A stretch of 64,000 nucleotides of DNA from the NCBI GenBank assembly GCA_040755995.1, contig JBFMAF010000051.1, positions 1 to 64,000 on the forward strand. Direction: 5' to 3'. The notes under the pieces are model-generated. The model was not told the origin of the DNA and ran no database searches. It saw nothing but the letters and a program-made list of their open reading frames with translations. The stretch is from Acidobacteriota bacterium. GTDB taxonomy: Bacteria; Acidobacteriota; CAIWXX01. Shown here one piece after another: positions 3 through 30,912 of this stretch (position 1 is its first letter; every line of letters begins with the position of its first letter). The translations under genes were made by a program, and so were the position numbers.

Positions 3-503
3 TACTCGACTGCTCTGCGCCTCTCCGAGCTCGCCGCGCTCGATCTTACCGACCTCGATCTTACTGCCGGCACGCTCATCGTTCGTTGCGGCAAGGGCAG
101 CAGGCAGCGCGTCGTGCCGCTCGGCGATGTGGCCATCGCCGCGCTCCTCGATTATCTCCAGAACGCTCGCCGGTACTTCCATCGCAGGCCTGGTGTAGAA
201 GCGCTCTTCCTCGCTGCTACTCACTGCGGCTCGACTGGCAACCGCCTCTCGAAGGCCTCCATCCGCGAGATCGTGCGAAATGCATCTCGCGCCGCCGGCC
301 TCGATCGCCCGATCAACCCGCACCAGGTCCGACACGCGTGCGCCACTCACATGCTGCGCGCCGGCGCCGATCTGCGCCACATCCAGCAGCTCCTCGGCCA
401 CGCCCGCATCGATACAACCGAGATCTACACCCAGGTCGACGTGAGCGACCTCGCCGACGTCCTCGCCCGCTCCCACCCGCGCTGCAAACCGCAGCACTCA
501 TAG
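3..503 (+). CDS. XerC/XerD-like tyrosine recombinase, C-terminal part (5' end outside window)
   Basis: Frame from base 3 reads YSTALRLSEL...GKGSRQRVVP...HQVRHACATHMLRAGADLRHIQQLLGHARIDTTEIYT, containing the catalytic R, HxxR, H and Y. Confidence 0.93.
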   Translation, partial: YSTALRLSELAALDLTDLDLTAGTLIVRCGKGSRQRVVPLGDVAIAALLDYLQNARRYFHRRPGVEALFLAATHCGSTGNRLSKASIREIVRNASRAAGLDRPINPHQVRHACATHMLRAGADLRHIQQLLGHARIDTTEIYTQVDVSDLADVLARSHPRCKPQHS

Positions 504-783
504 CAGCGAAAGAGAAAGCAGCAGCACGCGCTTGCTGGCCGCTTCTGCCAGGCGTATACTCGGCTCATCAGCAGCTGCAGGAGAGGCCAGGAGATGACCG
601 ACACACACGCGACTTCCACCCACAGCCTTGCTCATTCCTTCGCTGCCGTCTCCGAAGGAGCGCTGCTTGCCAGTGGAGCCGGGGTCAGCGCCAGGGCGAG
701 GGATCGCACACAGGCCGGCGGCGCATCATCTTCTTCTTTCGCTGCTCGGAGCGCTGTTTCTGCCGCACTGCGTCAATCAACAA

Positions 784-909
784 AATCAACGACTTGGCAC
801 AGCATCTATTCTTGCGCTTCGGCCGTTCGTCCCAGCCAAGTAGTTGATTCTACGCGGGTGGGAGAGGCGAAAAGTCGCCTACAGCATCTAATAAGAGCTA
901 GATACTATG
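784..909. promoter_or_regulatory. Putative tyrosine-recombinase att site: two IHF-consensus boxes plus an 11-8-11 imperfect palindrome
   Basis: AATCAACGACTTG (784-796, +) and AATCAACTACTTG (837-849, -) fit WATCAAN4TTR; TACAGCATCTA-ATAAGAGC-TAGATACTATG (880-909), arms 8/11 complementary. Confidence 0.5.
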
Positions 910-1412
910 ACCCGCATGCGGGGGGGTTCCTGAGCGAGGATCCTCTGGCGTTCCTGGCCGACTCCAATTTCTATCGATACGTGGGGAACAATCCGACGAT
1001 CTTCGTTGACCCTTATGGGTACTCTTGCACTCAATGGGAGGAGGCGGCATACCAAGCTGATCGTGATGTGGAAACGAGATACGGTGAGTGGATGCCTATG
1101 GGATCACTGGGCATATCGGTTGGCATCTATAATCCGCCGATCCCTAGCATTAATGTTTGCATGCGTCGGCGGTACGAACGCGATGTTTCGAGGGTGCGTT
1201 TGTGGCTGGAGCGAACTTGTGATGGATGCGACGCTAATCCGTGTCCCGACTGCTATCGGAAATTGTGCTATTGCAAGAATGGGCGTCAAGTTGAACGTCA
1301 GACAAAGTTCTTCGATTTGAAAGTCTATACGGATTGGGAATGGAAAGGGTGGCAGTATTTGCTGACACGCCGCAATTGCAGCGACCTGCCGTCGTACGGG
1401 GGAAGTTGGTGA
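885..1412 (+). CDS. Orphan RHS repeat-associated core with Cys-rich C-terminal toxin tip; no credible start of its own
   Basis: RARYYDPHAGGFLSEDPL...NFYRYVGNNPTIFVDPYG (RHS core and DPxG cleavage motif) inside ORF 594..1412; upstream residues do not look RHS-like. Confidence 0.85.
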   Translation, partial: HLIRARYYDPHAGGFLSEDPLAFLADSNFYRYVGNNPTIFVDPYGYSCTQWEEAAYQADRDVETRYGEWMPMGSLGISVGIYNPPIPSINVCMRRRYERDVSRVRLWLERTCDGCDANPCPDCYRKLCYCKNGRQVERQTKFFDLKVYTDWEWKGWQYLLTRRNCSDLPSYGGSW

Positions 1413-1542
1413 CCGCTCCTGCTGGAGGACAGACCCACTATGAGTACTTGGCGGGAGTCGGATGTGGGAGGTTCATACGGATTGGGAACGGAAAGGGGGC
1501 AATATTGGCTGACACCCTGCAATTGCAGCGACCTGCTGTCGT
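1327..1542 (+). repeat. About 69-bp imperfect direct repeat of the RHS tip 3' region (1327-1395 and 1475-1542)
   Basis: ATACGGATTGGGAA(T/C)GGAAAGGG...GCTGACAC..GCAATTGCAGCGACCTGC(C/T)GTCGT occurs twice. Confidence 0.85.
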
Positions 1543-1552
1543 GAGATGTTAC

Positions 1553-2182
1553 ATGCGAATTGTTCATCGCCTTCGGTTTGCCGTTGTCATCCTTCTTCTC
1601 TTGTCGTGGGGGGATGGGTGTAGAGAAGTGACACGTCTGCAGACATGTTCTATCTGTGGTTCTACAAGGAAGCAAACTAACACCTTTCGCCTTGGGTTCA
1701 TACCTAGATCGAGTGAATGGGAAGTCCTGTACGCCGCACCGGGGTTCGCGAACTGCAAACACCAATGGCAATTCGGCATTAGCTCAGGCACTCGAGATCC
1801 CGTCGCGGATGGCATTGTTGTTCTGGTCAGACAAGGATCGAGCTACGGTGCGTTTATACTTGACAGCCAGCACGTGAAACCTGAAGAGATGCACTATACC
1901 TGGTGCTTCCGATCTGATGGAAATGCCATGCTCGATCTATCTGAACCATCAATTCCCCACGGCACAGGCAGCGGCACAAAGATCAATTTCGGCCCGTTCA
2001 TGGTTCACTGGTCCGCATCAAGAGAGGGGGAGGGCTGGCTATATTACCCTCATGCACCGGGAGAGCCCATCAGGTTTGATGACTTGCGCATTTGCATAAC
2101 GTCTGAACATGAGATCAAGAATATCAATGCAGCCGATCCGAAGTGGATATACAAGGCGTCACCTAGTGATTCGGGATCATGA
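1553..2182 (+). CDS. Hypothetical exported or lipoprotein-like protein, candidate immunity protein
   Basis: ATG at 1553, MRIVHRLRFAVVILLLLSWGDGC signal-like N-terminus, lower GC, directly after the RHS tip. Confidence 0.55.
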   Translation: MRIVHRLRFAVVILLLLSWGDGCREVTRLQTCSICGSTRKQTNTFRLGFIPRSSEWEVLYAAPGFANCKHQWQFGISSGTRDPVADGIVVLVRQGSSYGAFILDSQHVKPEEMHYTWCFRSDGNAMLDLSEPSIPHGTGSGTKINFGPFMVHWSASREGEGWLYYPHAPGEPIRFDDLRICITSEHEIKNINAADPKWIYKASPSDSGS

Positions 2183-2278
2183 TCAGGTCAGTGGGCCCTG
2201 TCTTGGGCTCTAACACTACCTGGAAGTTGTCAAGAATCTAGTTGAAATCCCCGGCTCTTCGGCAGAATTGGCGGGTAG

Positions 2279-2324
2279 CCTAGCGCATGTTTGCGGGACT
2301 GTCATGTAAGTCATTGAAAGCTGA
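2279..2324 (-). mobile_element. Isolated inverted copy of the IS1634 right end
   Basis: CCTAGCGCATGTTTGCGGGACTGTCATGTAAGTCATTGAAAGCT is the near-perfect reverse complement of ~4550-4593. Confidence 0.85.
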
Positions 2325-2329
2325 GCTGC

Positions 2330-2560
2330 GGGTTCCAGAAATTCTGGCCGGGAGATTTCCGGAAATTCTGGCCGGTTTGAGGAGGCGCCGCAGGCATCTG
2401 GATTGGGGGTGTCCGGCGCCGAGCCGGCTGCTGGCAAAGCGCGGTCTGGGAGGCCGGGGCGAGGAAGCCGGAGGACGGGGTGATGGATCTGATGGTGTCG
2501 TATCGCCGATACCGCTCACCAGAACTGACCCGTCACCGCTTAGATAGATTGACCCACCCG
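2330..2560. mobile_element. Two IS21-like terminal remnants with 24-bp-period internal repeats
   Basis: TTCC(A/G)GAAATTCTGGCCGG at 2333 and 2357; TGTC at 2496 followed by ACCGCT..TGACCC at 2511 and 2535; no istA/istB present. Confidence 0.5.
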
Positions 2561-2727
2561 TAGAGCACTTGCGGATGCCTCCTAGCGCATGTTTGCAAGG
2601 CGATCGCGCTGGCGGGCTGAATCCACGTAGGGACAACTGAAACGTTTGAGTGGGCTGGCATGTTTAGGGCGTGTTTTCCAAAAAGTGTAGTGACAAACGG
2701 GCGGCATGAGAATTCAAATGCGGACTC

Positions 2728-2756
2728 TTGACAGGACCCCTAGCACGTATTATGAT
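2728..2756 (+). promoter_or_regulatory. Sigma70-type promoter of the transposase
   Basis: TTGACA-17 bp-TATGAT just upstream of ATG 2779. Confidence 0.7.
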
Positions 2757-2778
2757 AGTGGTGTAGAGTTGGTGAGCA

Positions 2779-4524
2779 ATGTTCCTCCGATCCATCACGC
2801 TGGGCGAGGGGAAGTACACCTACCTGCGCCTGGTCGAGAACTACCGGGAGCGAGAGAAGGTAAAGCAGCGGGTCGTGGCTCATCTGGGGCGGAAGGACCT
2901 GCTTGCACCGCATCTCGATTCACTGGTGCGCGCTCTGCAGGCGGAGGATTCTCCGTCGCGGTGGGTGAAGTCGGACGAGATCTCGGCGCCTGAGGCATGG
3001 AGCTGGGGGCCGGTCCTGGTGGCACGGCATCTCTTCGAGGAACTCTCGTTGAGTTCGATTCTGGACGGGCCCCGGGCCGGGAAGCGCGACGATCCCCCGC
3101 TTTCGGAGCGCGTCTTCCCGCTGGTCGCGAGCCGACTCAGTTGGCCGGGCAGCGAACACGCATTGGCGCAGTGGCTGGAAGATTTCTACGTGTGCACACG
3201 GAGTGGGAGTCGGTGGATGCCGAAGTGGAAGGAATCCGGCCGGGTGAAAGTGGATTTCCGGCAGCTTCGGATGTGGTACCAGACACTCGACCAGCTGCTG
3301 GTCGAGAAGGAGCGGGTGGAGAAGGCCGTCTACTTTCGGTTGCGGGATCTGTTCAGCATTCGGGCGGAGCTGATCTTCTACGATATCACCTCGACCTACT
3401 TCGAGGGTGAGGGCCCGGCCGAGATCGCGAAGTTCGGGTACAGCCGGGACCAAAGGCCACGGAACCGGCAGGTCCTCATCGGTGTCGTGATGATGGATGG
3501 GTGGCCGATCGCGCATCATGTCTTCGCGGGCAACCGGCTGGATGGGACGACGGTAGAAGAAGTCGTGGCTGACCTCAACAAGCGATTCGAGATCGAGCGC
3601 ATCGTCTTCGTTGGCGATCGCGGGATGGTGTCGGTCCACAACATCATGCAGCTCCGCAATGCGAACCAGGGCTACCTGGTCGGCCTGCAGCGGAGGAATC
3701 GAAAGGCGATCTACGATTACATACGTGAGGCCGAGAGCCGGGGCCGCTGGGAGGAATGCCCAGCAGGCATCGCTGCCTACGAGAGGAAGCCGATCCCGAG
3801 AACACGGGTGCAGGAGGTCGCCGGCAAGGAACCGGGCGTCAGAGTGTTCGTGGTTGATAGCGAGGAGCGGGCACTCTATGAGAGAAGCATGCGTGAGCTC
3901 TCAATGGAGAGGACAGGCAAGGCATTGGAGGCCATTCGCCAGCGAGTCGAGAAAGGCACTCTCAACGAGCCTCACAAGATCGGAGCCGCTGTGGCCAGAG
4001 CCCTTGCGCGACATCACGGCCACCGGTACTTCACTTGGCGGCTGAAGGACCGCGCCTTCTCCTACGCTGAACACCCGATCAGCCTCGCTCGCGAGAAGGC
4101 CCTGGAAGGCAAGTGCCTCATCCAGACCGAAGAGCAGGGCATCAGCCCGGTCCAGGCCGTGGCGGCGTACAAGCTCCTAAACGATGTCGAGCGTGGGTTC
4201 GCCCATCTCAAGGGTCTGCTCGAAATCAGACCTATTCACCATCGCCGCGAACAACGCGTCCGCGCCCACATCTTCGTCGCTGCACTCGCCTTCCTCGTCG
4301 ACCGCGCGCTGGAGAAAAAACTACGCCAGGCAAACAGCACCCTCTCTTCGCCATTCGCCTGGTCCGCCCTCGAGACGATTCGTTGCGTCAAACTCAACAT
4401 CAATGGCGACACCAAGCTCTGTGTCACCAGAGGCTCCCGCCACGCAGCTCAGGTCCTTCGCGCGGTGGGAGTAACCTCGGTGGAGCCCCCACCCCCGCCC
4501 CAGAACGAACCAACCATCATGTAG
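2779..4524 (+). CDS. IS1634-family DDE transposase
   Basis: YLRLVENYRE...VKQRVVAHLGR N-terminus, FYDITSTYFEG, FGYSRDQRP, FVGDRGM, VERGFAHLK, RPIHHR...RVRAHIFV. Confidence 0.92.
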   Translation: MFLRSITLGEGKYTYLRLVENYREREKVKQRVVAHLGRKDLLAPHLDSLVRALQAEDSPSRWVKSDEISAPEAWSWGPVLVARHLFEELSLSSILDGPRAGKRDDPPLSERVFPLVASRLSWPGSEHALAQWLEDFYVCTRSGSRWMPKWKESGRVKVDFRQLRMWYQTLDQLLVEKERVEKAVYFRLRDLFSIRAELIFYDITSTYFEGEGPAEIAKFGYSRDQRPRNRQVLIGVVMMDGWPIAHHVFAGNRLDGTTVEEVVADLNKRFEIERIVFVGDRGMVSVHNIMQLRNANQGYLVGLQRRNRKAIYDYIREAESRGRWEECPAGIAAYERKPIPRTRVQEVAGKEPGVRVFVVDSEERALYERSMRELSMERTGKALEAIRQRVEKGTLNEPHKIGAAVARALARHHGHRYFTWRLKDRAFSYAEHPISLAREKALEGKCLIQTEEQGISPVQAVAAYKLLNDVERGFAHLKGLLEIRPIHHRREQRVRAHIFVAALAFLVDRALEKKLRQANSTLSSPFAWSALETIRCVKLNINGDTKLCVTRGSRHAAQVLRAVGVTSVEPPPPPQNEPTIM

Positions 4525-5099
4525 TGACCAAAACGCGTTTCCACATGCGAGCTTTCAATGACTTAGATGACAGTCCCGCAGACATGCGCTAGGTCTCTTG
4601 GGTGGTGTGCTGAGCCCATTGTGGTTCTATGCCCGATGGCGGCCCAGGGAGTTGGCCTTTCGAGGCGACGACTTCTTCATCATCCTGGCAATCCTCTTCA
4701 ACTTACTGCTGGATAGTGTTCTTGGTTCTCTATTCGATGAGTCCGGGATGATCTCCAGTGCCCCTCGTCACGAAGGGTGAGGTTGTCAAGAACCCAAGAG
4801 CACGCTCGGGCTGCTTAGCCGTGGGTTGCTTGCAGAATCCGCCTCCCATGTGTTTGGCGATGATGGCGTCGATGAGGTGGACGACGCCCCCGGTGATGGG
4901 GGTCCGGGTCAGTTGATGGGCAGCGCCGCAGTCGCTTCGAGAGCCTGCCAGTTCCAACTCGTCCGTGCGAAGTCCAGAACGCGTTCGCTGCAGGCGTAGG
5001 AGGCGAATACCTCCTCGGAGGTGAAGCGCAGAAGATCGACCGTGGGCGGAGGGAGTGTTCCTTCCAGCTCATCCGGATGCGGAGGAACTGGCGGGCACT

Positions 5100-5578
5100 G
5101 CAGGAACTTCATCGCGGTCGGCTGCGTTGGCGAAGAGACGGCGATACTCACGGGCTACCTCGCGGCTCTCTCGCGGATGCTCCAGGAGGAGACCCTGGCG
5201 GTGCTCTTCTGCGCGCGCTCGGGCGCCGGCAAGAGCACCATGCAGAAGCGTATCGTCGAGCCTGTCCCGGCCGAGGCGCTTATCGAGCGCACCTGTGTGA
5301 CCAGGCAAGCGCTCTTCTACAAGGACGAAAACGCTCTCCTTCACAAGGTGCTCGCGATCGACGAGGAAGGCGGCGCCATCGAAGCCGCCCACGCGCTGAG
5401 GTCACTCCAGAGCGCCGCCTACCTCTCGATCACATCGACGCGCACCGATCCGCAGATCGGCAGGCAGCGGGCCGAAGACTACCCTGTGAACGGCGCGTGC
5501 GCGATCTTCCTCACGACCACTCACCCTGATGCCCTCGACTACGAGACCAGGAATCGCTTCATCAATCGACGAGTCTAA
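5100..5578 (+). pseudogene. Fragment of the P-loop ATPase region of a mobile-element DNA primase
   Basis: GCVGEET...LTGYLAALSRML...LAVLFCARSGAGKS...QALFY...LLHKVLAIDEEGG...LRSLQS...IFLTTT...ETRNRF; truncated at both ends. Confidence 0.7.
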
Positions 5579-5835: not shown

Positions 5836-5984
5836 AGCTTCGTCATGGTTGCCGACGAGGGTGCTCCGGCTCGGCTGCCGTCCTGTGGGCGAGCAGAGGA
5901 GGAAGTGCGGGGCCGGAGATGAAGGGATACTGAGCAAGAGCGATGCGAGAGAGAAGGAAGAAGGCGCGACTCGCGGGCGGGCCG

Positions 5985-6446
5985 ATGATCGATGAGCGGC
6001 GGGCGTACGTGCGACTGCCACAGAGAAGCATCATGCGCGTGCGCGAATTCAACTTCACGGATGAGCCGCCGAGGTACTTCGACGCGCACTACAAGAACAT
6101 CTCGGGCGGCGGTGTGCTCTTCGAATCGCCCTATGCGCTGCCGGTCGGCACGATCCTCAAACTCGAGCTGAGAATACCAGGGTGGGATCGTCTCGCGCCC
6201 CCGCCCTTCAGGATCGAATCGATGACTCTCATGAGCTCGCAGCCGCTGGGGGTGCTGGGGGAGGTCGTGAGGGTGGAGACCGTTCAGCAGGACAAGTGCT
6301 ACGACATCGGGGTGGTCTTCATCGGAATCGAGGACGAGCAGCGCCGGGCACTGATGCAATTCGTGGCGAGCCAGTACGGGTGCGGGCCCGAGGGCGAGCC
6401 GGCCCGCGGTTCACGCGAGCGCGCGCGTCATCCGAAGCGGCGCTGA
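5985..6446 (+). CDS. PilZ domain protein (c-di-GMP receptor)
   Basis: ERRAYVR (RxxxR), NISGGG (D/NxSxxG), GEVVRV...IGVVF. Confidence 0.85.
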   Translation: MIDERRAYVRLPQRSIMRVREFNFTDEPPRYFDAHYKNISGGGVLFESPYALPVGTILKLELRIPGWDRLAPPPFRIESMTLMSSQPLGVLGEVVRVETVQQDKCYDIGVVFIGIEDEQRRALMQFVASQYGCGPEGEPARGSRERARHPKRR

Positions 6447-6911
6447 ATGGACAGGGACAGCGCCATCCGGAACCTCATCGAGGCCACTCGAGAGGTCTTT
6501 GGCAAGATGATCACCATCCCATTGGGTGAGGATCCGACCTTCGAGACCGAGGCCGAGGCGCGCCGGTGCGAGATCGTCGGGATGGTGAGTCTCGCCGGCC
6601 GATCCATGGGAGTCGTCTCACTCCACTGCTCTCCTCGATTGGGCCTCCTCATCGCATCCAATCTGCTCGGCAGCCCGGTGACGGAGGTAGGGGAGGAGCT
6701 GGAGGACGCCGTCGGTGAGGTGACCAACATGGTTGCAGGAAATTTCAAGACGCGCATGAGCCAAGAAGGCGAGATGTTCGACCTGTCGGTCCCTACAGTC
6801 ATCATGGGGAAGGACTTCTCCGTCAAGACCATGACCGGTGCCCCTACACTGGTCCTCGGCTTCCGGTGGGAGAGTGAGAAATTGCTGGTTCGTTTGAACA
6901 TGAGATTATAG
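6447..6911 (+). CDS. cheX: Chemotaxis phosphatase CheX family protein
   Basis: DAVGEVTNMVAGNFK (ExxN), LSVPTVIMG. Confidence 0.88.
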   Translation: MDRDSAIRNLIEATREVFGKMITIPLGEDPTFETEAEARRCEIVGMVSLAGRSMGVVSLHCSPRLGLLIASNLLGSPVTEVGEELEDAVGEVTNMVAGNFKTRMSQEGEMFDLSVPTVIMGKDFSVKTMTGAPTLVLGFRWESEKLLVRLNMRL

Positions 6912-14879: not shown

Positions 14880-16259
14880 TCATGCGAACGCCGCCCGGAG
14901 CCGCCTGAGGATTCGCCCGGGGAAGTTTCTGAGCCGCGTCAGCAGCCATGGGCGCGTGATGTTACGCGCTCTGGCGATCTCCAGCTTGGCCATCAACCCC
15001 CCGACGCGAAACGGGAGTTGCGGGAGGCGCACCAGCGTGCGCGTGAGGCGGTAGCCGTGCGCGCGCGCCGCACCGCATCGCGCGTACAGTTCTTCCAGGT
15101 CATCGACCGTGCGCCTGACTGTGAAGCGTTCGAGCATGAATCGTCGGCCGTTACTTCCGAGCCGTTCCGCGAGGTCGCGATCCTTCAGCAATCGAATGAT
15201 CGCATCGGCCAGGGCTTCCGGATCATTGGGAGGAACGAGAAGGCCGGTCTGCCCGTGCTTCACGGAGTCGACCAGCCCGCCCACGCGCGTCGCGATCAGC
15301 GGCCGGCCCATCATCAGCGCCTCGATGCTCCCGCCCAGGTTTTCGCAGAGCGATACTTGGAGTGCGACATCGAACATGGCCAGCATCGCCGGAACGTCGT
15401 TCCGCTCGCCGGTGAAGAGCACCGCGCGATCGATGCCGAGCGCGAGCGCCGTCGCGCGCAGCCTCTGCTCGTATGCCTCGCCTTCCGGTCCCCATCCTCT
15501 TCCGACGAGGAGAAACTTTGCCGCGGGGCACTCCTTCAGGACCAGCGGAATAGCGCGGAACAAGACGTCATGCCCTTTCACGCCGCGGTCGAGCAGGTGC
15601 GGCGGCGTCAGAAATGCGTTGCGCAGCGGCGGATAGAAGTGAGCTACGAGGCCGACGACCGGCACATCGTCGCCGATCCCCAGCTCGCGCCGTACTGTGT
15701 CGCCCGAGGTGGCTGCCGGATCGAACCGGTCCTCGTCTAGACCGTAGTAGATGACCTCCATCCGCGAAGCGGGCGTGCCGCGCTCGATGTACAGCTCGCG
15801 CGTCTTTTCGCAGGTGGCGATGACGCGCGTGTCGGCCCAGGCCGTTCCTGCTTCGAGGTCGCCGAGGATTGGGGCCTCCAGGTAGAACGTGCCGGGGATC
15901 ATGGAGAAGCGAAGCGGCGCGTCGGCCAGCCACGCCGCGAGGCGTCCCATCAGGATCGAGCCATAGAGGTGGTAGTGGACGACGTCGGCGCGCAGCGCGC
16001 GGAGCAGACGCGACGCACGCCGGATCTTCGAAAACGCGTGCAGCGCCGTCGTGCTCGACGGCAAGTCGAGATCGAGGAACTGGACCGGAATGCCCTCGCT
16101 CGTGAGAATGCGGGCGATCGTTCCGAACCCGCCGCTGAGGACCGCGCTCACGTCGCACCCGCGCCGGCATTGCTCGCGCAGGATGGCGATCAACCACGGC
16201 GCCCCTTCAGGGGTTCCCGCCAGGTGCACGATGCGCAGCGGTCTCATCGGTCGATTCAC
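14880..16259 (-). CDS. Glycosyltransferase family 4
   Basis: KGHDVL, FTGERNDV, ENLGGSIEALMMGRPLIATRVGG, TGLLVPP. Confidence 0.92.
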   Translation of the reverse strand: MNRPMRPLRIVHLAGTPEGAPWLIAILREQCRRGCDVSAVLSGGFGTIARILTSEGIPVQFLDLDLPSSTTALHAFSKIRRASRLLRALRADVVHYHLYGSILMGRLAAWLADAPLRFSMIPGTFYLEAPILGDLEAGTAWADTRVIATCEKTRELYIERGTPASRMEVIYYGLDEDRFDPAATSGDTVRRELGIGDDVPVVGLVAHFYPPLRNAFLTPPHLLDRGVKGHDVLFRAIPLVLKECPAAKFLLVGRGWGPEGEAYEQRLRATALALGIDRAVLFTGERNDVPAMLAMFDVALQVSLCENLGGSIEALMMGRPLIATRVGGLVDSVKHGQTGLLVPPNDPEALADAIIRLLKDRDLAERLGSNGRRFMLERFTVRRTVDDLEELYARCGAARAHGYRLTRTLVRLPQLPFRVGGLMAKLEIARARNITRPWLLTRLRNFPGRILRRLRAAFA

Positions 16260-16644
16260 GGCAAGAGGAACGCAGTGTCCAACGTCGCGTCATCCGGCTC
16301 GATCAGATCGTGACACGCGACGCCATGCTGCGATCGGCGGTTGATCACGGTCAGAGGATATGGCCGGGGTGCTTTGATGTCAAGCGTTCATGAACGCGGG
16401 CGCGACCACTGGACTGTGGCCGGAGCCCGGTTCTACGACCAGATCCGGTGGAGATAGCCTGGCTGAGGTGGTTCTCGCGGCGGCTGTATGCCGAGTGCGC
16501 AGAGCACATCTCATAGGTGGCACCGGCGCTTCTCCAGAAGCATGGTCTTGTACAGGGAGAGATGGGAATCGACCATCATGTCCTCGGAGTGGCTCGTTTC
16601 CACGCCTTGCGGGGCCGCCCCGGCGAGCCTCCGTGCCAGTCCTG

Positions 16645-16896
16645 TTGCGGCACGAGGGAGTGGCTCAGGCCGTCGTTTTCGCCCTATCGCACGAGCTGCT
16701 CGGGGAGGAGGTCGGGGCCGCAGTGGTGGCCCGCGAGGAATCCGCGCTGGATCCATCCGAGCTTCGCGACCTCACCGCCGTTCACCTCGCCAAGTTCAAG
16801 GTCCCGAAGCGAAATCTCGTCGTCGATCAGATCCCGATGGGGCCAACCGGCAAACTCCAGCGCGTTGGCTTGGCGAAGAGACCGGGTTTGGAGTAG
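16645..16896 (+). pseudogene. C-terminal fragment of an AMP-dependent acyl-CoA ligase
   Basis: LLRHEGVAQAVVF...LGEEVGAAVV...LAKFKVPK...IPMGPTGKLQR. Confidence 0.8.
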
Positions 16897-16929
16897 CGCA
16901 GGCGGCTGCGACACTGCATCGAGCTGCGG

Positions 16930-17340
16930 CTATGGCAGAATCACCTTCCCGGTGGTCCTCCGCCCTTCGAGTGCGCGGTGCGCTTCGGCGACGTCGATCA
17001 GCGCATAGCGCTCGTCGCCGCGAATTGTCTTTCGGTACTCGGCGAGAGCGGCTTCCAGGCCGCGTGCCGTGATCAGGGATTCGACGGCGCGGGCCGTCGA
17101 TTCGGACTGCAGCCGCCATGCGGCCTCGATGTTGGCAAGATGGAGGGCCTGACCTTCCGAGACGCGAGTGAAGCTGGCGAGGCCGGGGTACTTCATTTCG
17201 AAGGGGAACCGCTCTTTGGTCGCCGCGAGTGTCGCCCCATCCCGGCGGGCGGCCGCCACGCCGTCCCAGATGTCTTTCAAGTAGGTCACCTGAGCCCGAA
17301 ACTCGGCTCTGGTCATGGCGTCGGAATGCCCAGCGAGGCC
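16930..17340 (-). pseudogene. Chimeric remnant: MBL-fold-hydrolase-like C-terminal part fused in frame to the duplicated qor tail
   Basis: GHSDAMTRAEF...YLKDIWDGVAAARRDGATL followed by VAEAHRALEGRRTTGKVILP. Confidence 0.55.
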
Positions 17341-17426
17341 GTCTACCGACGGATGACGGAGGCCTTCGTCGGTTAGTGCTTTTGATTGGCGACGTGAGCG
17401 GCCACTGCCATGCCGGATGCACTCCC

Positions 17427-18554
17427 TCAACGCGGTGGCATCGATACCTTGTACTTCGCCACCCAGCTCGTTCCGTCTTCGTTCGTCAGTATCGCGTGCA
17501 AGGAACCCTTCGAAAGGACCATGCCGTCGAAGCTCTTGTAACGGTCTCCCTTCGGCATGACGATCCTTCCGCGATACAGGTACTTGCCGTCCAGGGAGAA
17601 GATGTCGACATCCTGCCTGGCGATAGGCGAGTCGAAGCTGTCGACGGTGAAAACGTACACGAGGCCATCGATCACCTGGATGCGGTGGAAATAGGTCAGC
17701 TTCCGGGGGAGAAGCGGGAGCAGCTGTTCCACTCTGTCGGCAGGGATGCTCGAGCCGGCCATGTGCCTCCTCAGCTCCTCCTCGGTAACCTGGCCCCTCT
17801 CCTTCGGGAGGCCGAAGCTGCCGACAGCCTTCCCGTCCAGATCCGATACGAGGATCTCGTAGCGGTCGTTTCTGCCGAAATAGAGCCGGCCGCCGGCCGG
17901 GTCATACCCCATGTTGATCTGGGGAATCACCCCGAGAATCACGCCGCCGAATTTTGTCTGATCCTCCGGCGCGATAGTGAATTCATGGATCGTTTTCGGC
18001 TCGCCGCCCGTCGTGGAGATCTTCCGTATTGCGGCCTTCCCGCCGGGAAGCATGACAAGGGCGCCGGGGGCGGTGAAGAAAACGTCGTCGCTCGTGAAGA
18101 CCAGGGGAAAGCTCTCGAATATGTTGTTCGGAAAAGTCGAAATGAACAGGCCGCTATGATCGTAGCAATGCAGCTTGTCCATGCTGCCGACGATGACGCG
18201 GCAGTCCGACGTGAAGCAGTTGATGTACCGGGAAATGAGCCCCGGGCCGTCCCCGACTCCCGCGAAGGTCCCCAGGATGTCCCCTTTTTCGTCGACAATA
18301 TAGCTGAGGTGCCTTTCGAAATCGTGGAAATAGAGCTTCCCATCGCTCGCGACTCTCGGTTCGCCGGGCCGCTTCAGCGTATCCGCTCCCGCGCGATTGA
18401 AGAACCATACCTTGACGGGCGCGAAATCCCATTCGCCCTTCAGGGGCTTGGCGGAATCGGCCGTTCCGGCGTAGGCCGCCGCGGCCACGCCGGCGCACAC
18501 GACTGCGGCCGCCGCGAGGATAAGACCCGCTGGGAAAATGCTCCTCGGATTCAT
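17427..18554 (-). CDS. Secreted 6-bladed beta-propeller protein
   Basis: Signal peptide; GTFAGVGDGPG, YEILVSDLDGK, DIFSLDGKYL repeats. Confidence 0.75.
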   Translation of the reverse strand: MNPRSIFPAGLILAAAAVVCAGVAAAAYAGTADSAKPLKGEWDFAPVKVWFFNRAGADTLKRPGEPRVASDGKLYFHDFERHLSYIVDEKGDILGTFAGVGDGPGLISRYINCFTSDCRVIVGSMDKLHCYDHSGLFISTFPNNIFESFPLVFTSDDVFFTAPGALVMLPGGKAAIRKISTTGGEPKTIHEFTIAPEDQTKFGGVILGVIPQINMGYDPAGGRLYFGRNDRYEILVSDLDGKAVGSFGLPKERGQVTEEELRRHMAGSSIPADRVEQLLPLLPRKLTYFHRIQVIDGLVYVFTVDSFDSPIARQDVDIFSLDGKYLYRGRIVMPKGDRYKSFDGMVLSKGSLHAILTNEDGTSWVAKYKVSMPPR

Positions 18555-18783
18555 GCTTATGTCCTCCCTTTCGAGACCGTGAAACTCGTGTGAATAATAG
18601 AGCACACTCGCGCAGATTCTACACTCGAATCGGGGAAAAGCTCCGAGTAATTCTTCCTCTAGTAGGGCTCCTATCCCGCGAAGGAACAGACCTTCCTCGG
18701 AGCATGGACGGGCGATCCCATCTGCAGATCATCCGGGGGCTCAAGCACAAATCGATCAGCCACGCCTCTGCGCGGAGCTGCAC

Positions 18784-19752
18784 CTACGGCACCAGAATCA
18801 CCTTCCCGGTGGTCCTCCGTCCTTCGAGTGCGCGGTGCGCTTCGGCGACTTCGTCCAGGCGGTAGGTCGCCCCGATGCGGACCTTGAGTGCGCCTGAGGC
18901 CACCCAGCCGAGCACTTCGCCGGCGCGCGCCAGCAGCTCTTCACGCGTCGAGATGTAGTGGAACAGGCTCGGGCGGGTGAGAAAGAGCGATCCCTTCGCA
19001 GCCAGCACTCCGGGATCGAACGGCGGGACAGGACCGCTCGACTGGCCGAAAAGCACGAGCATGCCCCGCGGGGCGAGGCAGTTGAGGCTCTTCTCGAAAG
19101 TGCTCCGCCCGACCGAATCGTAAGCGACCTGCACTCCCTTGCCATTGGTAAGACGCTTGACCTCGAGCTCGAAGTCCTGAGTGTCGTAAAGGATCACATC
19201 GCCGGCGCCGGCTTCATGCGCCAGCCGCGCTTTCTCCTGCGTGCCGGCGGTCCCGATCACCCGGGCTCCGCACATCCGTGCGATCTGGCACAGCAACAGG
19301 CCCACGCCGCCGGCGGCGGCGTGCACGAGGCACGTATGCCCCGATTGGAGCCGGAATGTAGATCGCATCAGGTAGTGCGCGGTCATGCCCTGCAGCATGA
19401 CGGCGGCAGCGGTCCGGTCGTCGACCCCTGCCGGCACTTTGACCAGCCTCTCGGCGGGCACGATGTTGTAATCGGCGTACGAACCGGGGACGCCGGTCCA
19501 GGCGACGCGATCGCCGGCAGCCAATGTGGTCACCTCCGCCGCGACCTGTTCCACCGTTCCAGCCCCCTCCAGCCCCAGCGCGTAGGGCAGGGGGTTCTTG
19601 TATAGACCCGTTCGCTGATACACGTCGATGAAGTTCAGTCCGCAAGCGGCGATGCGGACGAGGGCAGTTCCTGGAGGGACACTATCCACCTCCGTCTCCT
19701 CGATCCGCAGCACCTCTGGGCCTCCGAATTCGCGAATCACAACTCTTCTCAT
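18784..19752 (-). CDS. qor: NADPH:quinone oxidoreductase (zeta-crystallin type)
   Basis: GGPEVL, GLNFIDVYQRTG, LQGMTAHYL, HAAAGGVG, GSLFLTRP. Confidence 0.95.
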   Translation of the reverse strand: MRRVVIREFGGPEVLRIEETEVDSVPPGTALVRIAACGLNFIDVYQRTGLYKNPLPYALGLEGAGTVEQVAAEVTTLAAGDRVAWTGVPGSYADYNIVPAERLVKVPAGVDDRTAAAVMLQGMTAHYLMRSTFRLQSGHTCLVHAAAGGVGLLLCQIARMCGARVIGTAGTQEKARLAHEAGAGDVILYDTQDFELEVKRLTNGKGVQVAYDSVGRSTFEKSLNCLAPRGMLVLFGQSSGPVPPFDPGVLAAKGSLFLTRPSLFHYISTREELLARAGEVLGWVASGALKVRIGATYRLDEVAEAHRALEGRRTTGKVILVP

Positions 19753-19807
19753 CGTCAAGTCTCCTGTAGAGAAAAACCACCCGGCCACTGCAGACCCTGA
19801 TTCAAAT

Positions 19808-22800
19808 CTACCACGCATCCAGGGGCAGCTGTCTGAAGCGTGACACTCTCTTTCGGCACGACTGGTATTTCCTCATATTGCCAACCGAACGGTAGAGCTC
19901 GGCGGCTTCCTCGTATCGCTTGAGACGCTCGAGCATGCGCGCTGCCTCTTCCTTCAGGCCGGCTTCCGAGTAGAGCCGGTACGCATGCTCGTATCGCTTC
20001 TCTAGCTCAAGCAAGTAGGCCGCTGTGGGCAGATCCCCCGACTTCACGAGTGCACTGACGGCATGCTCCAGATCGCCGATGGCACGGTACACCCTTGCTG
20101 CCTCTGCTGTCTTTCCCTCCTTCATCAGCCATTCCGCCGCGCGGTCACCCTGTCCGATTGAAATGAGGCACGCCTTGTTGTTCACGGTCGGCTCCAAATG
20201 CACCCAACACCGCTGCGCATCCACCGTCCAATCACCGCACAGATACCAGAGCCCAGCCGCCTCCGTTCGGCCGGCTGCCTCCAGGCGCCGCCCTCGCATG
20301 TTCGCATCACGCGACCACTGCTGCCGGCCGGTCTTGCTCCAGTATTGGGCAGCCTCCCTGCAGGTCGTCAGCGCCCTGTCGTACACCCCGAGCTGCTCCC
20401 ACAACTCGACAAGGAAATCCAAGGGGAAGAGGTTCCGATGCGGCTCAACGAGCCTTTCCACCAAGCCCAGAGTCTCTGCGCTGCGGTCTGCGGCGAACCA
20501 TGCCCGGAAGAGCGTCGACAATTCGTCGGCGATGCGCCTCTGGGCCGCGGTTCCGGCGCGCCGATCCTCCAAGGCGCTGGACAACTGGGCGGCAGCAGCC
20601 TCATAGGTGCCTGTCTCGCGACAGTGCTTGATCAGACTCTGGTAATCCCCGAGCTGCATCCAGCACCGAATCGCCCTGGCGGAATTGCCGGCGAGTACCG
20701 CGCAGGACGCGGCCTCCGCCAATTGCATGGCTTGCTCGTAGGCGACCGAAGCCGCAAGATACAGCCTGGTGGTCCGCATCGACTTCGCGAACGCCTCCAA
20801 CGACGCGCGCTCGCCTCCCGCCTTCTCCTGCACCCTCCAAACATGGCAGCAGGTGCTCAAGACGGGATGGCCGTTCCGGCGATCGGCAACGCTATGGGCG
20901 TAAGCCAATGCGGCATCCTTGTAAAGTCCGCCTCTGAGGTATGCATCGGCCGCCTTGTCCATGTCCCCCGCTGTCCGATATGTCTCAGCCGCCAACGCCC
21001 ACACCCCCGCGGCCTCCCACTCCACCGCAGCCTCCGACACCCGATCGAGTACCGCCAGGCGCAACGCGCGGCGAGCGTGGTCCGCGCCGCTCTTGGGCGC
21101 CATCTGCAGTTCCTGTTCGAAGCGGTCACGGAGGGCCGGGTTCAGTCCCTTCCGGTAGTGCTCGATTGCCTCGCGCCATGATCTTCTACGTTCGTAGTAA
21201 TCCCCCACACCCTGGAAGTCGCTCATCTGCAGCAGGCAGCGAAGAAGGGCGTCGTCCCGTCGCAGCTTCTTCCAGATCCGCGCGGCCTCCGCGTAGAGCC
21301 CGGCGGCCTCGTAGCAACGGCCCGCGTCCTCCAGTCGCTTTGTCCTCAAGTAGAGCGCGGCCGCCTTCCCAAGATCTTTGGCTTGTTCGTAGGCGCCAGC
21401 AGCTTCTTCGTACATCTTGCGGCGTTCGCAGAGCACCGCCATGCGGCCGGGGCGCCCGGCCTTCTTCCAGCACTCTATCGCCCGGTCGAGATTCTTCTGC
21501 TCTTCCCAGAGCTCGGCGAGCTCCTCATACCGATTCCCCTTCTCCAGCAGCCGGATGCGACACAGGAGCGCGCGCTGCTTCTCGCGCAGCCGCTGCCAGA
21601 TCGCCAGGGCCTTCGCGGGCTCGCCCGCCAGCTCATACGCCTCGGCTGCGCGGCGATGCTCACCGATGGTCTCCCAACCCGCGGCGGCCGCAGAGAACTC
21701 CCGGCTCTTCTCGTGCGCAGTGGCCATGGCCCGGTGCATGAGCTCTGGCTGGCCGGCGTTCCTGTAGCATTCCGCCGCCGCTCGATAGTGCTCGTGATCG
21801 ACGAAGTAGTCTGCCTGCCGCTTCCAGTCCTCCGGCGACGACGTGGTGCGCCAGCTCAAGTCAAGTACGTCCAGGGTTGATGTGCGATAGACCAGATCGC
21901 CTATTTCGTTCAGCGACCAGACTGACGACGGCTTGGGGCCGTCATAGACGATCAGGTCCTGCTGAGCGCGTGTGATCCCGACATAGAGCAGGTTTATCTC
22001 GTGGCGAATGTGTTGATCGTGGATGCGCGCGGTCTGGGCGCTCTGGATCTTCGCCCAGAGGTCTGCAACGCCCGCTTCGGAGGAGAACTTCCAGAGCGTA
22101 ACCGCCCGGAACTCCAGGCCCTTCGCCTCGCGAATCGTGAAGACCAGCTCGGTGCCTAGCCTCTCCTTCAGCCTGTCCCTCTCGGCATCGGTGCGAGTCA
22201 AGATCGTCTGATCGGCGGCCGTCACGCGCAGTCGACCAAGGAAGGTGTCCTCTTCGATCCCATGCAGTAGACAGGGCGGCCTGCCCTGGTACTTCCATTC
22301 GTCCATCCTCTCGTCGCTCTGGACGCCGAGCAGGTTCTGCTTGACGCGGAGGAACGCGTTTGCCAGGCTCACGATGCTGCCCACGCAGCGGAAGTTGAGC
22401 GTGAGGTAGTTCACCGGCGGGACCGGCTCACCGCGATCATAGAAGAGCTGCTTCACTTCTTCCCATCGAAAGCCGCTGGGATTGACGATCTGCTTGGGAT
22501 CACCTGCGAGCACTAGCCCCCGCGGATGATGCGGCAGACGCACGATGAGAGAGAGTTGGATGTCGGTGAAGTCCTGCACCTCGTCGCAGCAGACCAGGTC
22601 GTAATGCGGCCGGCCCGTCGCGCCGGCGTCGATCGTCCGTATAGCGGCGCGCGCCATATCGATTTCATCCCAGAGACCCGCGGCAGCGAGGCGCGCCTGG
22701 TACCATTGCGCCACAGCGTAGATGTCGCTGCGATCGTGCTGGAAGACGGGCGCGCGCTTGCGCCCGAGCTGCTCGTATTCGAGCAGCGTCATGAGAGGTG

Positions 22801-30836: not shown

Positions 30837-30912
30837 TGGTGGACGGTAAGGGATTCGAACCCTCGGCCTCAGCGTTGCGAACGCCGCGCTCTCCCAGCTG
30901 AGCTAACCGCCC
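30837..30912 (-). tRNA. tRNA-Ala (CGC)
   Basis: GGGCGGTTAGCTCAGCTGGGAGAGCGCGGCGTTCGCAACGCTGAGGCCGAGGGTTCGAATCCCTTACCGTCCACCA: 76 nt, G3:U70, encoded CCA. Confidence 0.97.

Follow-up and report, generated by a model that had tools for sequence, protein, structure and literature searches.

A candidate mobile element that swaps toxin tips at a fixed site in rhs genes, and its relatives across bacterial phyla

Introduction

The passages of Hagan 2023 (PMC10539506) on rearrangement hotspot (RHS) and contact-dependent inhibition (CDI) toxins ascribe the exchange of their tips to homologous recombination. In the displacement model of Jackson 2009 (PMC2935791), as set out in the relevant passages of that article, rhs tips are displaced by way of circles that arise from homologous recombination, and an episomal pool of tips is predicted; those passages know of no integrase with rhs and leave the origin of the circles open. 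Here we analyze a 64,000-nucleotide stretch of an Acidobacteriota genome (GCA_040755995.1, contig JBFMAF010000051.1, positions 1 to 64,000; hereafter the window), which begins with the right end of a candidate mobile element, namely a tyrosine recombinase gene and a conserved arm, joined directly to the core end and tip of an rhs gene. As in the passages of Jackson 2009 (PMC2935791), an incoming tip would travel on a circular intermediate, here a deduced one, and the old tip would be displaced downstream; unlike in those passages, the element has fixed breakpoints and a dedicated recombinase-primase unit that carries the tip. Orphan tips downstream of full-length rhs genes, as such displacement would leave them, are found on two contigs of the genome (C28 and C24) and at the E. 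coli loci described below. Core fragments of variable length without a dedicated recombinase are not what the element sites show, as all seven in the genome begin at a single base, without core upstream, and have recombinases adjoining.

The gene neighbourhood of the element was known earlier. Kawano, Aravind and Storz 2007 (PMC1891008) drew a SymE-cHTH-Prim-Hel neighbourhood beside RHS and haemagglutinin genes, in which a cHTH gene accompanies a DnaG primase fused to an AAA+ helicase, and the portion of that article concerned matches the enterobacterial relatives of our element. The neighbourhood was framed there as toxin-antitoxin, and its text contains neither 'recombinase' nor 'integrase'; the portion concerned describes no att site or tip exchange. 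In our elements, too, a cHTH gene and a DnaG-type primase with a C-terminal ATPase lie by rhs or haemagglutinin genes; symE is present in the E. coli, Shigella and Lonsdalea relatives, and DUF433/DUF5615 genes stand in that place on C28. Passages of Ruhe 2016 (PMC4927057), Steele 2017 (PMC5727410) and Zhang 2012 (PMC3482391) report genes for integrases or XerC/D-like proteins next to cdi, rhs or poly-immunity arrays; they suggest site-specific recombination as a possible contributor, leave the role of these genes open and define neither the boundary of an element nor an att site, a primase or a unit that carries a tip. Kirchberger 2017 (PMC5361080) draws, in the part concerned, an analogy with integrons, and Smyshlyaev 2021 mentions neither Rhs nor primase. 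A preprint (bioRxiv 10.64898/2026.07.13.738213) cites Martinkus 2026 (Curr Biol), in the passage concerned, for Xer-dependent systems beside poly-immunity arrays; that paper is the main risk to priority and may go further. We found no description of the element in the literature searched, supplements and most subscription papers lying outside that search, and the family appears to be undescribed as a toxin-tip exchanger.

Results

A complete element and a fixed junction in the same genome

The junction at the start of the window (contig C51 of genome G000) is defined by the following features.

3..503, forward strand: C-terminal half of rec2, the element's second tyrosine recombinase (PF00589), truncated at the contig start
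504..891, forward strand: element right end (attR arm side), multi-copy in the genome (C24, C28, C35, C42, C43)
880..891, forward strand: element-encoded core arm, a partial mirror of the rhs RYY(D) codons
892..898, forward strand: predicted crossover (overlap) region, with 892-895 as the minimal shared part
892..1412, forward strand: displaced rhs core end with Cys-rich variable tip (orphan), TIGR03696 at 47.9 bits against a cut-off of 32.5
5099..5578, forward strand: relic of a primase P-loop ATPase domain, 72-84% identical to the C28 and C16 primases

A first-pass annotation, made from the sequence alone, had proposed that a mobile element integrates within the rhs core, supplying a new tip and displacing the old one. 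The recombinase that it saw ending at 503 matches PF00589 (E 2.6e-36) and has its catalytic R-K-H-R-H-Y motifs intact; the gene is truncated by assembly, because the contig begins at base 1. This recombinase is 64% identical to rec2 and 50% to rec1 of the complete element on C28, and it clusters with rec2 in a tree that was built only in a quick version, with long-branch warnings. The abrupt start of RHS homology also held up: TIGR03696 matches the 885 frame from its residue 3 at profile position 33 of 76, so that the first 32 RHS core positions are absent and the match starts at about 891. The primase-ATPase relic was likewise recognised in the homology search, at 5102-5578, with 72% identity to the C-terminal domain of the C28 primase and a premature stop at its end, and it is likely to come from an older, decayed element copy. 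Since the window tip sits behind the element right end, it is a displaced tip and not a newly installed one, and the relic downstream suggests that it was the cargo of that older copy. In this amended form the proposal is supported by the sequence comparisons that follow.

The genes that the annotation expected upstream all lie on C28: a second recombinase, a CHC2/TOPRIM primase, a helix-turn-helix (HTH) gene and a full-length rhs, whose overlap matches at the same codons. There a complete element of 7,777 bp runs from attL at 21655 to attR; the rhs gene has 2,430 codons (15019-22308). The order is rhs, a short downstream gene in the immunity position, a DUF5615/DUF433 pair, an HTH gene on the minus strand, the primase (933 amino acids, CHC2-TOPRIM-ATPase, DnaG-type), two XerC-like recombinases, the right end and an orphan tip. 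The 7 bases past the breakpoint are identical in the full-length rhs and the right end, with mismatches flanking them on both sides; both tips belong to an uncommon rhs subtype. Contig C16 holds rhs, a downstream gene, a minus-strand open reading frame (ORF) at the HTH position and a primase that reaches the contig end, and element relics were found on C15, C24, C35, C36, C37, C42, C43 and C48. C15, C16 and C48 carry open ends of elements.

A profile search identified 20 rhs core-end motifs in the genome, 13 preceded by rhs core and seven by the element arm. Those seven start at the identical base after the same 7-base arm end, and their tips differ; a family relative (G029) contributes three more junctions with the same arm. 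The final 7 bases of the arm at 880-891 are identical in all seven right ends of the genome and in the three of G029. Among 33 hand-collected right ends the arm is conserved, with T and A at arm positions 5 and 6 in 30 and in all 33, respectively. C8 holds a divergent right end of the same type. The stretch 772-943 of the window is repeated on other contigs of the genome, mainly at contig ends, and in an independent sample the contigs of relatives span window positions 1 to about 930, continue into other tips and match nothing past 1001. The alignment called for by the annotation thus returned the same junction at recombinase-adjacent rhs tips in the genome, in the family relative and in dozens of other loci. 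RHS homology does not extend well upstream of 880, and a related palindrome does occur at other recombinase-adjacent junctions.

The imperfect 11-8-11 palindrome reported at 880-909 is located as described, with 8 of 11 arm matches and a right arm that is plain rhs coding sequence. However, it is neither family-wide nor rare by itself, as 175 of about 63,970 window positions score at least 8, and it was dropped as stand-alone evidence. Within the genome the seven element-preceded sites score 4-8, against 1-6 for the 13 core-preceded sites; the non-random feature of the palindrome is its position.

Two further loci of the genome were noted. C16:2583-16419 is a classical orphan array that lacks the element: its five rhs core ends are of the C28 subtype and are accompanied by long core fragments. 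A long rhs at C3:154035 (minus strand) shares the 7-bp overlap of the C28 element, has no primase match on its contig and is likely, judged by sequence, to be an unoccupied target.

Breakpoints across the element family

At least 1,890 of 8,000 scored candidates are homologues of the primase C-terminal domain; matches occur in 16 of 401 genomes of the phylum, and the closest named loci are mostly metagenome-assembled genomes of Acidobacteriota. From 105 loci fetched we obtained 98 primase-recombinase units, 82 of them distinct. Members of the family occur in Acidobacteriota, Pseudomonadota, Bacteroidota and Fibrobacterota, and relatives in Spirochaetota. An rhs core-end motif lies within 2 kb downstream in 25 of the 30 distinct elements with at least 1.2 kb of downstream sequence, and an upstream core-end motif was present in 18 of 24 elements.

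To compare breakpoints we used 11 left/right pairs, all of one subfamily, the one with its break at the window's column. Six core-preceded pairs are 28% identical over the 37 bases left of the breakpoint (window base 892) and 98% over the next 7. The overlap 7-mer is identical in 8 of the 11 pairs; with the C24 pair added, its first 4 bases are identical in 12 of 12, and 3 of those 4 vary between pairs. The left edge of the overlap is base-sharp, and the right edge is not. Behind the element, no core remains left of the fixed base at any of the seven sites in the genome or in the 33 collected right ends.

Probable movement of the tip together with the element

Tandem arrays show what the unit comprises. 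Locus L091 reads core, tipX-element, tipX-element, tipY, with a 7,147-bp unit that begins at the site and is repeated at 100% identity; its last site has only about 5 bases in common with the others. A Bacteroidota locus with two recombinases (L134, Aureibacter) is a like tandem at 99.98%. Junctions of the arm to the element's own tip, found as tandems or as assembler-collapsed circles, are the expected excision product.

Relatives with a single recombinase have primases of 40-45% identity; 37 plasmid records contain them, as do 54 of 5,426 E. coli genomes. With such relatives in about 1% of complete E. coli genomes, the tip-exchange question becomes directly testable in laboratory strains. 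In E. coli the break falls at the DPIGL codons. Strain JNE120442 (L123:8174-13366) has a tip-immunity-symE-HTH-primase block fused to a full rhs at an ansP-pptA-type locus, and strain 200164 (L124:16103-21283) has the same block behind attR at a ybgA-phrB locus. The two blocks are 95.6% identical from exactly the junction onwards, and their tip proteins are identical. The last-displaced tip of L124 is found fused to full-length rhs in L131 and L132, without adjoining primase or recombinase. An empty-site search with the orphan tip of L126 returned element carriers only, in 2 of the 5,426 E. coli genomes. A Shigella record is an 8,758-bp circular plasmid without a typed replicon and is a permutation of one unit.

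Targets extend beyond rhs. In Paraburkholderia, two orphans lie behind the same element end, and both start at one identical base of a filamentous-haemagglutinin (CdiA-like) gene; tandem relatives follow CdiA/TpsA-type genes on plasmids of Enterobacter, Pseudomonas and Paraburkholderia (L119:8329-32616; L133; L135). The left-end cargo of annotated relatives includes HNH/EndoVII, ADP-ribosyltransferase and non-specific endonuclease genes, paired with SMI1/KNR4, Imm8 or NTF2 immunity genes. No clear junction was found at a 13-kb Leptospira circle (L117) or at a Ralstonia locus (L118).

As side observations, relatives also lie behind a 2,075-amino-acid Leptospira protein annotated as peptidase M23 (L137:4988-17896), and at L026 and L021 elements are followed by non-RHS tails; the Leptospira locus and these tails suggest further target classes. 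An element-free E. coli orphan array with core fragments was found at L127.

A proposed mechanism for tip exchange

Gene order, base-exact junctions, matching left and right overlaps, tandem units that start at the site and the same unit at two rhs loci can be read directly from the sequences. We consider it very probable that this is a 7-9 kb element which sits at one fixed rhs base, carries a tip and its immunity gene at the left end and, by excision as a circle and recombinase-mediated integration, swaps the tip of its host gene.

We predict that the element excises when its right end recombines with the site in the full-length toxin gene; the arm would then adjoin the element's own tip in the resulting circle, and the previous tip would return to the host gene. 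Upon integration at another copy of the conserved codons, the element's tip would be fused in frame to the RHS body and the immunity gene installed, and the resident tip, moved downstream, would be orphaned. Catalysis would fall to the element's own tyrosine recombinases, of which there are two here and one in many Proteobacteria. Tandem insertion followed by excision at alternative sites could reassort tips among elements. The DnaG-type primase-ATPase may replicate the element from a repeated 11-mer, the divergent HTH protein may repress it, and selection may act through kin killing; the element would be maintained because cells that lose it would no longer be immune to a toxin still delivered by their kin. 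In the window, a copy would have integrated in front of an older one, orphaning the older tip (892-1412) and its immunity gene; the older copy would then have decayed to a primase fragment and received an insertion sequence (IS).

The element thereby offers a carrier, a fixed site and a candidate enzyme, the recombinase, for RHS/CDI tip exchange. If the mechanism is correct, it would represent a mobile element that spreads by takeover of its host's own toxin-delivery machine, and a recombinase set that targets conserved protein-coding motifs. We lean slightly towards a broader reading, in which these elements form an unnamed, cross-phylum class of self-replicating mobile warhead exchangers: clade-specific recombinases would recognise conserved toxin codons (RHS, CdiA/TpsA and others), 4-5 bp of shared sequence would suffice, the host would kill element-free kin, and the elements would constitute the episomal pool of tips foreseen in 2009.

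Alternative explanations

Several points weigh against tip exchange by the element as proposed. The upstream half of the window copy lies off the contig, and assembly collapse could account for the circular records and the 100% tandems. Five of the 30 elements lack the downstream motif, two having the last core motif only (by eye) and three none. The 11 pairs were hand-picked with duplicates left out, subfamilies that break elsewhere (L016/17/24, L018/19, L022, L023, L045, L051/52/55) were omitted, and the permutation value for the overlap, 3e-5, is inflated by kinship. Partner tips are still 93% identical over the 7 bases beyond the overlap and 83% over 30, and because the right boundary is not sharp, the 7-bp overlap is only an estimate. 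Most tips of the genome are Cys-rich without a known toxin domain; a recognisable, weak one was found in 1 of 12 scanned tips. Finally, because element-free arrays with core fragments exist (C16, L127), homologous recombination swaps tips as well.

These element-free arrays, whose core fragments vary in length, together with the 83-93% identity of partner tips right of the junction and the longer core piece that some subfamilies retain behind the element, would suit the explanation that fares best among the alternatives, in which host homologous recombination swaps the tips via circles with core fragments, as in the Jackson 2009 model, and the primase-recombinase block is a passenger captured once. 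The element sites, however, have no core left of the fixed base. Furthermore, the final site of L091 and its partner have only about 5 bases in common, and base-exact breakpoints recur in E. coli and in the CdiA-like target. We regard this explanation as improbable.

Slightly less probable still is a selfish integrative replicon for which rhs is a harmless landing site, the tip serving to restore the reading frame or stemming from imprecise tandem excision, and exchange having no selective role. Integrative elements often restore the gene that they enter, many copies of this element are decayed, and the Cys-rich tips of the genome mostly lack known toxin domains. The relatives argue otherwise, in that their left-end cargo includes annotated nuclease and ADP-ribosyltransferase toxins with immunity genes, and in that they occupy several polymorphic-toxin classes (RHS, CdiA/TpsA and the large Leptospira M23 protein). 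The recombination mechanism is the same as in our proposal, and the two differ in function only.

Action of host XerC/XerD at a dif-like site, as in integrative mobile elements exploiting Xer (IMEX), with the element's recombinases incidental, would accord with their simple, XerC/D-like tyrosine type and the dif-like 11-bp arm geometry of the site, but is highly improbable, as an XerD-arm motif has no match in window 500-1000, all three element recombinases tested fall under the XerC/XerD equivalog cut-offs with catalytic motifs intact and cluster apart from the genome's two likely housekeeping copies (quick tree), and the arm sequence varies with element clade.

Comparison with other mobile systems

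Integrons comprise IntI, attI and attC, and a new unit entering at the fixed site displaces older units downstream. The element resembles them in entering at a fixed site and shifting older units downstream. In contrast to integrons, its recombinase travels with the unit, its site lies inside a protein-coding gene and its product is a gene fusion, the tips starting at rhs codons; the recombinases score 103-124 bits with the IntI model TIGR02249, below the cut-off of 265.

Phage satellites (P4-like elements and phage-inducible chromosomal islands, PICI) carry a tyrosine recombinase, a divergent repressor, a primase-helicase and toxin-antitoxin cargo. With its 7-9 kb, tyrosine recombinase, divergent repressor, primase-helicase and toxin-antitoxin cargo, the element is similar to these and to small integrative replicons, and C28 (7,777 bp) matches their combination of integrase, repressor and primase-helicase in about 8-15 kb. 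Terminase (terS), capsid and helper-interference (Psu/Sid) genes are not recognisable in the complete C28 copy, which is filled by annotated genes; nor is any capsid, packaging or conjugation gene, overlapping ORFs and those below 100 amino acids lying outside the PHROGs scan. No primase relatives were found in 50,697 phage records or IMG/VR, and none of the 23 IMG/VR matches to a 17-base end motif has element genes. The element also differs from satellites and target-restoring replicons in entering a polymorphic toxin gene, which it restores with a different toxin.

Other recombinase-borne systems are more distant. IMEX have a dif-like site and no recombinase of their own; the element has two with intact motifs, and the XerD-arm motif goes unmatched. 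RIT (recombinase in trio) elements have three adjacent recombinases, against 1-2 per element here, the three of L016 being a split rec1. For GmtY of the Gamma-Mobile-Trio, scores with NF040693 are 20-35 bits against a cut-off of 340. The poly-immunity arrays of recombinase-associated acquired interbacterial defence (rAID) combine an XerD-like recombinase with immunity genes and no toxins; the element units have toxin tips, fused or displaced, and a primase. As a separate observation, the C35 orphan tip has three neighbouring tyrosine recombinases (RIT-like) downstream of it and, beyond them, a primase relic (L005, C35:290053-292618).

Motifs of the right end, the displaced tip and neighbouring features

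The remaining features of the window are as follows.

504..514, forward strand: repeated 11-mer, copy 1, candidate iteron or accessory site
635..645, reverse strand: repeated 11-mer, copy 2
734..744, reverse strand: repeated 11-mer, copy 3
784..796, forward strand: predicted IHF-consensus box 1, exact match, clade-specific
799..808, forward strand: additional copy of the arm 10-mer (half-site), unconserved, in 3 of 7 right ends of the genome
837..849, reverse strand: predicted IHF-consensus box 2, exact match
1475..1542, forward strand: degenerate duplicate of the tip 3' end (1327-1395), 90% identical over 69 bp
1553..2182, forward strand: candidate immunity protein, 209 amino acids, hydrophobic N-terminus
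2279..4593, forward strand: IS1634-family insertion sequence, outside the element, with 44-bp inverted repeats and transposase at 2779-4524 (NF033559, 298 bits, cut-off 100)

Both the 11-mer and the insertion sequence had been overlooked in the first-pass annotation. The 11-mer occurs in both orientations in the right end and also within the primase gene (C28, C16, C24 and C36 carry it); 16 of its 29 matches in the genome fall in element DNA, it is 4-fold enriched in other loci, and it is a candidate replication iteron. The two IHF boxes that had been reported match the consensus exactly, and no other stretch of the 64-kb window does. Box 2 has at most 1 mismatch in all seven right ends of the genome and in L030 and is missing from 25 others; with 8 of 33 right ends, the boxes were dropped as a family-wide feature. 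The half-site at 799-808 is present as reported and was dropped likewise. Folding of the right end as single-stranded DNA gave an unpersuasive z of -2.1.

The frame 594-1412 is open through the right end into the displaced tip, which could permit expression of the orphan tip in this clade. Such a frame (127-327 codons) is open into the tip in C51, C28, C24, L030 and L039; as a general feature, an element-encoded leader for the orphan tip was rejected, for it holds in this clade and fails in most others. At L034 and L038, the start of a hydrophobic, signal-peptide-like ORF follows rec2 and is joined to only the last rhs core motif and the tip; judged by its sequence, this ORF start might export the displaced tip by itself.

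The window tip has no Pfam family, no usable Atlas match and no homologue but itself among 30 longer candidates, and a single-sequence structure model reached a predicted local distance difference test (pLDDT) score of 39. Its toxicity is putative, the toxin and immunity annotations coming from relatives and from one weak match in the genome. The 69-bp duplication at its end had also escaped the first reading. The pairing of the protein at 1553-2182 with the tip is suggested by its position. This protein has no Pfam family, Atlas leads that are all below 0.9 and 2 homologues among 79 candidates; a copy, 67% identical, follows the C35 orphan tip.

The insertion sequence is single-copy, without an evident target duplication. 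Sequence similar to its right end is found at seven of the genome's contig ends, and positions 2581-2596 hold a 16-bp partial repeat. An Rfam search of the window returned a single tRNA (30840-30912) and nothing else. Beyond the primase relic, PilZ-domain and CheX genes at 5943-6911 mark where ordinary chromosome resumes.

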